A program made the position numbers and the translations under genes. 64,000 nucleotides of DNA from Octopus vulgaris (Eukaryota). How positions within the stretch are numbered: position 1 is the first letter of the stretch; every line of letters begins with the position of its first letter. Shown piece by piece: positions 45,863-46,589 of this stretch. The notes beneath the pieces were generated by a model, which was not told where the DNA came from, did not search any database, and worked only from the letters and a program-made list of their open reading frames with translations. The DNA is taken from contig CATOCA020000004.1 in NCBI GenBank assembly GCA_951406725.2, positions 248,001 through 312,000 on the forward strand. The letters are read 5' to 3'.

Positions 45863-45904
45863 TTATGGATGTATCAAAAGAAAAACAGGACGCAAAAGAT
45901 TTTA

Positions 45905-45995
45905 CGGTACATATGTTTCGGGCTTTATTGAACAACTTATTCTTATATCAAGGCATAATTGATATAACAGATAGATCAAAAGCCTTCTTCAGCCG
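45905..45995 (-). ncRNA. Hammerhead ribozyme motif with long stem II (left arm)
   Basis: CGG-CTGAAGA-AGGCTTT...AAAGCCC-GAAA-C-ATAT-GTA-CCG on the minus strand. Confidence 0.7.
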
Positions 45996-46319
45996 CGAAC
46001 AATTACCGCACCAAAGACATGTGTCACATTATAACAGGTTTGAGAAAAAGTTTGAGAAAAAACCGAGTTTCATTGGGAAAGTAAATCCTCACAGGCGTAT
46101 ATGGCATTACGAGACTCCAAAACAAATCGTCCATACCGTTTTTTCACACAGCTTTATCGAATGAAATACGGTATGGACGATTTGTTTTGGAGTTTAATAA
46201 TACCATGTACGCCTATGAAGATTTACAAACATACTTTCCCAGTGATACTCGGTTTTTTCCCAAACTTCTTCTCAAACCTGCTATAATGTGACACATGTCT
46301 TTGGTGTGGTAATTGTACG

Positions 46320-46410
46320 CGGCTGAAGAAGGCTTTTGATCTATCTGTTATATCAATTATGCATTGATATAAGAATAAGTTGTTCAATAAAGCCCGAAAC
46401 ATATGTACCG
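46320..46410 (+). ncRNA. Hammerhead ribozyme motif with long stem II (right arm)
   Basis: CGG-CTGAAGA-AGGCTTT...AAAGCCC-GAAA-C-ATAT-GTA-CCG. Confidence 0.7.
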
Positions 46411-46589
46411 TAAAATCCTTTGCGTCCTCTTTTCTTTTGATACATATATCCTATCACCTATACCACTAGCTGGCATATACAGGTGCTTACATTTATCAAG
46501 TATCCATCCTGAATTTATTGTTTATGTATGTATGTATGTATGTATGTATCTATTAATCCATCCATCCATCCGTCCGTCCATCTATCCGG

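Follow-up and report, generated by a model that had tools for sequence, protein, structure and literature searches.

The 64,000-nucleotide stretch of octopus DNA analysed here (the window, C34:248001-312000) holds a palindrome with a hammerhead ribozyme motif on each strand. Is this locus a device in its own right, such as a hairpin RNA or a self-cleaving unit active on both strands, or is it the footprint of a transposition event? The palindrome was examined for its internal structure and boundaries, its relatives were collected in genome-wide searches of the 2.8-Gb genome, and the hammerhead motif was compared across families.

Results

Structure and boundaries of the palindrome

The palindrome of two inverted arms is real. 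In a local alignment, 45869-46143 and 46164-46445 are identical at 256 of the 274 aligned bases (93.4%), with one 8-nt and one 1-nt indel. Its RNA is predicted to fold into a rod of -413.7 kcal/mol, with a 15-nt terminal loop and perfect stretches of 54, 45, 26 and 25 bp. The initial annotation described a 15-nt spacer between the arms, but the loop is not a spacer: sequence of the element enters from both sides, up to 46147 and again from 46152. The limits 45869..46445 given there hold for the arms, but leave out a tail of about 76 nt on the right and a probable 15-bp target-site duplication. The features of the locus are as follows.

45476..45859, no strand: (TATC)n microsatellite target, left of the insertion, read from the sequence
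45860..45874, plus: probable 15-bp target-site duplication, left copy; it shares its last 6 nt with the 3' end of the left arm (microhomology)
45869..46147, minus: left arm, 5'-truncated 3' end (pLTR) of a Penelope-like element (PLE), the tailless short form, which ends 39 nt beyond the cut site of the hammerhead
45904..45996, minus: left-arm type I hammerhead motif; core from 45992, 66-nt stem II, predicted cut 45908/45907
46148..46151, no strand: head-to-head junction, 4 bases outside either element match (matches end at 46147 and begin at 46152)
46152..46521, plus: right arm, 5'-truncated PLE 3' end, long form, mosaic, with variants of another subfamily at 46194-46260
46319..46411, plus: right-arm type I hammerhead motif, predicted cut 46407/46408; stem I 46319-22/46408-11, core 46323-29, stem II 46330-95, GAAA 46396-99
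46399-46406, plus: right-arm stem III, 2 bp, with a self-complementary AUAU loop
46446..46521, plus: the family's 3' tail, which extends the right arm, but not the left, by about 76 nt past 46445
46519..46533, plus: probable target-site duplication, right copy; it shares its first 3 nt with the end of the tail

The direct repeat formed by 45860-45874 and 46519-46533 is identical at 14 of 15 positions and overlaps both element ends; within 45000-47000 its 8-mer core occurs only at 45860 and 46519. As it sits in a microsatellite, we grade the target-site duplication as probable rather than proven. The 14/15-bp repeat thus lies in low-complexity DNA, and a 14-bp duplication is visible at another locus, L073. 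To the right of the insertion the repeats carry on as (TATG)n/(TCTG)n. No empty allele was seen at the palindrome in four read-derived contig sets, of DNA or of unknown kind. In full-length sister elements (L111, L113) the homologue of the tail leads into the ORF. Elsewhere in the window, at 47779-47953, there is another, MITE-like palindrome, with 70-nt arms that are 90% complementary and lie 35 nt apart.

Family and clade of the parent element

The arm is a dispersed repeat with at least 45 matches in the genome (40 of 1471 candidates scored), and a 20-nt core has 149 exact matches, versus 0 for the control. The 5' truncation differs in position among the copies of this family, which run into (TA)n-type repeats; their 3' ends fall not at the hammerhead cut site but about 39 nt or about 105-115 nt beyond it. 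The arm subfamily is found 3' of remnants of a GIY-YIG ORF at two loci that are tied by a common 3' UTR. One of them, L061 (1694-8537), is a 6.8-kb head-to-head insertion of the same element, with the end of a GIY-YIG ORF and a long, interrupted 3' UTR; the other, L104, has remnants of the RT thumb and the endonuclease, the shared UTR (82%) and, on one strand, the same hammerhead. The inverted pLTR layout of Penelope-like origin, proposed at the outset, is therefore upheld both by the family copies 3' of GIY-YIG ORFs and by the head-to-head orientation. The arms of L061 reach into the 3' UTR and are broken by later inverted-repeat inserts.

A search with this GIY-YIG endonuclease yielded 18,643 candidates, 150 of which were scored, and 842-aa open frames of a sister family were present in 4 of the 19 fetched loci (L111-L114). 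The sister family and the arm subfamily are about 68-74% alike in the pLTR and 69-73% in the endonuclease. In L113, a related hammerhead precedes the first ATG at a distance of 197 nt, and a degraded copy follows the 3' UTR. The sister family (e.g. C11:64235500-64245400) is young; it has a 1.6-kb 3' UTR and many near-identical endonuclease matches, and has probably been active recently. By tblastn there is no ORF at the palindrome locus, and no intact ORF of the arm's exact subfamily was seen, the intact ORFs being those of the sister family.

By its protein motifs, the parent element appears to be a PLE of the Hydra type. The sister-family protein P0001 contains DKT in place of DKG (ADKTG at 131), YRDD, and the CxCX5C, CxxC and CxH motifs, the last three of which are also present in the remnant at L061; CCHH is absent by eye. 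The same set, namely DKT, the CxCX5C linker, CxxC, CxH, no CCHH and (TA)n targets, characterizes C-terminal EN+ PLEs of the Hydra clade such as Hydra-1_Obim, as the clade is defined in section 11 of PMC8557442, and P0001 resembles by eye the Hydra alignment published there. At the N terminus the RWK of the Hydra clade reads RWA (RIRWA at 43), so that RW is kept and K is not. A preference for (TA)n is seen here as well: (TA)n or related repeats adjoin most copies, and the window locus lies in (TATC)n/(TATG)n. The elements described here exceed the <3 kb typical of the Hydra clade because of their 3' UTR of about 1.6-2 kb. The clade placement is by motifs and comparison by eye, since Pfam gave nothing usable on the endonuclease remnant and the 842-aa ORF, and the PDB sequence search had 0 matches, so that neither named the RT or the endonuclease. 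A homologue search found 572 relatives, nearly all unnamed and many with PF26215, and did not name the clade; named homologues exist in Argonauta. A placement with Neptune/Nematis, considered from the Zn linker, was dropped on the motif match to the Hydra definition.

In two presumed-RNA runs of different studies, with 2 contigs in each, loose contig ends after the tail at window position 46516 consist of a short run followed by poly(A) (agreement about 0.55), a weak hint that transcripts of the family may be polyadenylated at the end of the tail.

Head-to-head pairs in the genome

Among the first 100 of the 149 listed core matches, we counted by eye nine head-to-head pairs within 1.1 kb and one at 6.6 kb, three same-strand pairs, and no tail-to-tail pair. 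Head-to-head pairs, the inverted pLTR insertions that the initial annotation ascribed to PLEs, are common in this genome. Further head-to-head pairs in other families were found with a tight pattern (21 matches versus 0 for the control). The 110 copies collected include 20 head-to-head pairs, or 19 when L071, a duplicate of the window locus, is left out, as was done in all pair counts, and no tail-to-tail pairs; since many loci were fetched for being pairs, 19 pairs per 110 copies should not be read as a frequency.

The tail is present on exactly one arm in 18 of the 19 independent pairs, versus 29 tailed copies among 70 single ones (p=2e-5); the one pair that breaks this rule, L070, has no tail. 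The two arms abut within -4 to +2 nt in 8 of the 19 pairs. In the 18 pairs other than that of the window, 29 of 36 arms have their partner among the 3 copies, out of 109, that are nearest to them. The window pair is an outlier, with an arm difference of 6.6% and partner ranks of 23 and 11. Its arms nevertheless share two near-private variants (46292 and 46411), each of which occurs in 1 of about 70 other copies. Given the variants of another subfamily carried by the right arm at 46194-46260, we infer a template switch or a later gene conversion of that arm.

The hammerhead motif and its covariation

Outward from the centre, each arm contains stem I (GCGG/CCGU), the core CUGAAGA, a 66-nt stem II, GAAA, stem III (AC-AUAU-GU) and the GUA triplet. 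The cores start at 46323 (plus) and 45992 (minus), and both arms show the type I order with the core CUGANGA, GAAA and NUH. One motif per strand, with a stem II of about 65 nt, had been read from the letters, and so it is. In both arms stem II opens with an A10.1-C11.1 mismatch, in place of a Watson-Crick R10.1-Y11.1 closing pair, followed by six pairs, GGCUUU/AAAGCC. Taken by itself, stem II has a better predicted fold than 198 of 200 shuffled sequences (z -2.6). For the whole motif, the hammerhead is not the predicted minimum-energy fold even in a single arm, where it lies 13 to 14 kcal/mol above it, and the dimer duplex of stem III is predicted at -7.0 kcal/mol. The covariance-model check suggested initially found no hammerhead at either the gathering or the E-value thresholds of Rfam: over the locus there were no matches at the gathering score and 18 weak ones below threshold, mostly to miRNA hairpin models, which are hit because the locus is a hairpin, and none to a hammerhead.

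Other motifs of this kind occur in the window. A single copy of a diverged subfamily at 62753-63159 (plus) has a canonical CUGAUGA core, G10.1-C11.1, a 68-nt stem II and a tail, and shares the 8-nt insertion with the right arm. Another repeat, in which CUGACGA is combined with a distant GAAA, is located at 10183 (plus), 51038 (plus) and 56311 (minus), and short hammerhead-like motifs of other repeats at 20870 (plus), 20382 (minus) and 9180 (plus). The motifs at 20382 and 20870 are head-to-head, about 490 bp apart, and their sequences differ.

Genome-wide, the pattern consisting of the core, 60-85 nt and GAAACATATGTA has 958 matches, versus 0 for the control. There are thus at least 958 long-stem-II motifs with the same stem III, belonging to 20 or more families whose stem II sequences are unrelated, one lineage of which is tied here to PLE ORFs. 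A further long-stem-II family, with a GAUC stem III loop, forms a head-to-head pair at L108 (8189, minus, and 9131, plus) beside a GIY-YIG remnant.

Covariation was tested on 20 family representatives, clustered from 34 hand-picked motifs that looked divergent, by permutations that ignore relatedness. Stem I is paired at 3.05 of 4 positions, versus 1.82 expected, and positions 2-6 of stem II at 3.95 of 5, versus 2.11; in neither case did any of 10,000 permutations score as high. Within 35 close copies covariation does not go beyond shuffles (0.086 versus 0.083), and the stems are conserved there, with 88% of cells paired. Covariation, which had been named as a check of the ribozyme reading, therefore speaks for it across families and gives no signal among close copies. 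From the covariation of stems I and II across the 20 families it follows that the hammerhead motif is under selection, and we regard it as a selected feature of the parent element's RNA.

Position 10.1-11.1 behaves differently from the rest of stem II: it pairs in 8 of the 20 families (40%, versus 49% expected), no more than by chance. Among 106 motifs, a count in which a few overlapping loci enter twice, A-C is found in 69, A-A in 18, A-U in 6, G-C in 6, G-U in 4, U-U in 2 and U-A in 1. The A-C state is also present in the sister family with intact ORFs, and the copy at 62949 has G-C. In the published set of Hydra-clade hammerheads, a U-U or U-C mismatch at this position is found, by our own count, in 15 of 25 families (File S2 of PMC8557442). 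As A-C is the commonest state (69 of 106 motifs), is seen in the sister family and has a parallel in those 15 of 25 families, the mismatch is a trait of the family and the clade and does not mark these copies as decayed; the initial annotation had taken it to make activity uncertain. A U-U mismatch there is described as compatible with cleavage in PMC3088659, which also reports weakness or mismatch at the base of stem II. Where PLE hammerheads have a stem III of this kind, they are described as cleaving weakly and as dimers (PMC4209133). The hammerhead of the parent RNA probably likewise cleaves weakly, as a dimer or with help of protein.

Discussion

Comparison with known systems

Most aspects of the locus have counterparts in published descriptions of PLEs. 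A head-to-head 5'-truncated copy, a tail on one arm, a short target-site duplication (at this locus a probable one), a microsatellite target and a hammerhead on each strand are all features of the inverted pLTR insertions of EN+ PLEs (PMC3846280; PMC8557442, Fig. 2 legend; Penelope-13_HM in Files S1/S2). In contrast to these, the palindrome has no ORF between its arms, one of which is a subfamily mosaic, and the tail is about 65-85 nt rather than the 30-40 bp reported in the described insertions. The dual min-HHRs of Cercyon in Schistosoma (PMC4209133) also lie on opposite strands, 100-700 bp apart, with a short stem I and a small palindromic stem III suited to dimers. Their stem II helix is 7-8 bp, whereas the stem II region here has 66 nt, and G10.1-C11.1, described as conserved in that paper, is A-C here and unpaired in 12 of the 20 families.

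With the Hydra clade (PMC8557442) the motif shares the type I hammerhead, often mismatched at the base of stem II. It differs in length: loop 2 of the published hammerheads has 3-10 nt, versus 51-80 nt for stem II plus loop here, and Hydra-1_Obim has a hammerhead that is short and of a different kind. A long stem II plus loop (53 nt by our own count) with a mismatched base is found in the hammerhead of PLE-X1_sMoe of spike moss (File S2 of PMC8557442), an endonuclease-less element of another clade and host that targets 28S rDNA. Finally, animal non-LTR retrozymes (10.64898/2026.07.22.740005) are described as short, non-coding, PLE-derived sequences with a type I hammerhead, as is the case here, but they form head-to-tail tandem units with same-strand hammerheads in place of a single inverted pair.

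A probable single insertion event

We conclude that the palindrome consists of two 5'-truncated PLE 3' ends (pLTRs), each with a hammerhead motif and belonging to an element with Hydra-clade protein motifs, which lie head-to-head in a microsatellite and most likely arose in a single insertion; we put the probability of this reading at about 0.88. Membership in the family, the link to GIY-YIG ORFs, the orientation, the one-sided tail, the flanking direct repeat and the covariation of the stems across families are all observed. The same layout, an inverted 5'-truncated PLE copy with a tail at one end and a target-site duplication, is a published one (PMC3846280; PMC8557442). Hammerheads on opposite strands, 100-700 bp apart, are described in Schistosoma (PMC4209133), and Penelope-13_HM has one on each strand (File S2 of PMC8557442).

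We propose the following course of events. The PLE RT-endonuclease, acting in trans, would nick the two strands of the AT-rich target at points about 15 bp from each other, and each 3' end would prime cDNA synthesis on an RNA of the element. For the short arm, the RT would start about 39 nt past the hammerhead cut site, and for the tailed arm about 114 nt past it. Both cDNAs would copy through an uncut hammerhead and stop about 280-370 nt in, and joining of their ends would leave the 4 filler bases and the duplicated target. The cDNA of the right arm probably switched template, or was later gene-converted. The hammerhead at the palindrome would then be a passenger, trapped in the rod of any read-through RNA. 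Several of these steps have a parallel in vitro, where a PLE protein cuts and extends both strands, two RT start sites define the tail, uncut RNA is used, and the hammerhead is described as protein-assisted (PMC11167929). Self-priming on an antisense template was proposed as another route to the same layout (PMC3846280). The arm difference of 6.6%, larger than in most pairs, is not what a simple model with a single RNA would give.

Alternative explanations

This difference also speaks for a separate origin of the arms, a second pLTR stub having landed in opposite orientation at the 5' end of an older one. The subfamily variants of the right arm are absent from the left, and its 8-nt insertion is present in 10 other copies, not counting the duplicate locus. 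However, both arms have the two near-private variants, and the direct repeat flanks the whole head-to-head unit. The one-tail rule and the lack of tail-to-tail pairs, both among the matches listed and in the 110 collected copies, also argue against two events, as does the targeting by this family of microsatellites, not of its own 5' ends; we consider two independent insertions quite unlikely. The same divergence bears on the suggestion that the inverted arm is an assembly artefact, a fold-back chimera near the gap at 47002-47101. The palindrome lies 550 bp from this gap on a small, 592-kb scaffold, and none of four read-derived contig sets, from DNA or from runs of unknown kind, bridges the junction, although holes in contigs prove nothing. 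A fold-back, however, gives identical arms, not arms 6.6% apart with subfamily-diagnostic variants, and 18 other pairs have the same anatomy. Moreover, 40739-47001 recurs inverted at C34:586241-592480 (99.1% over 6276 bp, with 6 mismatches and 21 gaps), an overlapping contig in which the palindrome and its junction are the same, apart from 5 small differences in the palindrome. This duplicate ends at the scaffold end and at the gap of the window, and is therefore most likely an overlap of two contigs; a scaffolding error at the gap is possible. The divergent mosaic arms, the second contig and the 18 like pairs make an artefact at the palindrome itself very improbable.

Long double-stranded RNA is a substrate of Dicer and ADAR. 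A read-through RNA of the locus could therefore supply about 280 bp of duplex that silences the family or is edited, and the expectation that a transcript of either strand contains one sense hammerhead and a long double-stranded rod agrees with the predicted fold and its long perfect stretches. We found no sign of transcription from this locus, and no run recorded as RNA contains the stretch. Sequence of the family is present in four of four runs presumed to be RNA, but no listed contig of these runs crosses the palindrome junction, and at the diagnostic sites 46292 and 45904 all their depth carries the family majority base, not that of the locus. The layout, in addition, is found again at many random microsatellite sites, which is what a by-product of insertion would show. 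A functional hairpin RNA is thus unlikely, and as a side effect it would be compatible with the single-insertion explanation. By inspection there is no host exon among the longer open frames of the window, a survey in which short exons would be missed.

We give still less credence to an ambisense unit that cleaves itself on both strands and replicates as a circular RNA, the viroid-like possibility raised by the initial annotation. An intact-looking hammerhead core is indeed present on each strand, and animal retrozymes are proposed to be PLE derivatives (10.64898/2026.07.22.740005). But with a single sense hammerhead per strand, close to the 3' end, an RNA of unit length cannot be excised, whereas retrozymes are described in the same source as needing two consecutive same-strand units. 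No second same-strand hammerhead flanks a unit here, the next same-strand motif of the family being 16.6 kb away at 62949. On either strand of a head-to-head pair the antisense arm is transcribed first, and in read-through RNA of either strand the hammerhead fold is predicted to cost about 135 kcal/mol, compared with 13-14 in a single arm. Because of this order of transcription, this cost and the missing same-strand partner, the viroid-like reading is not supported; the ends of the family copies, which lie about 39 nt or about 105-115 nt beyond the cut site instead of at it, also count against this reading. The head-to-head pLTR layout is already known, and the palindrome is probably neither a regulatory nor a viroid-like device.

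Significance

The palindrome is an ordinary retrotransposon footprint, of little importance in itself. What may be new concerns the family: tentatively, and with considerable doubt, we suggest that the Hydra-type PLEs in this genome have a hammerhead subtype of their own, represented by at least 958 motifs from 20 or more families, in which the core and AC-AUAU-GU are kept, stem II has 51-80 nt of unrelated sequence and 10.1-11.1 is free. Its stem II may have been selected as a platform by which the protein of the element switches on cleavage. As a part of the same suggestion, the near-strict one-tail rule (18 of 19 pairs) might reflect a PLE dimer that is asymmetric, each of its two RT subunits starting at a site of its own on the RNA. 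Our literature search found no specific report of a 51-80-nt stem II in retrotransposon hammerheads, and work on PLE variants may already describe long or mismatched forms, the 53-nt stem II plus loop of the spike-moss PLE-X1_sMoe being known from File S2 of PMC8557442 by our own count. Penelope families are listed in an octopus, and ribozymes go unmentioned in the available portion of that paper (PMC13282606).

The long-stem-II PLE hammerheads missed by Rfam are natural variants that bear on how far stem II tolerates insertion and mismatch, and on the activation of cleavage by protein. The asymmetry of the tail and the variants shared between arms are genomic constraints on the integration of PLEs, in particular on dual-strand priming as opposed to self-priming. 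Finally, head-to-head PLE pairs could add to the pool of editable double-stranded RNA in a cephalopod genome.
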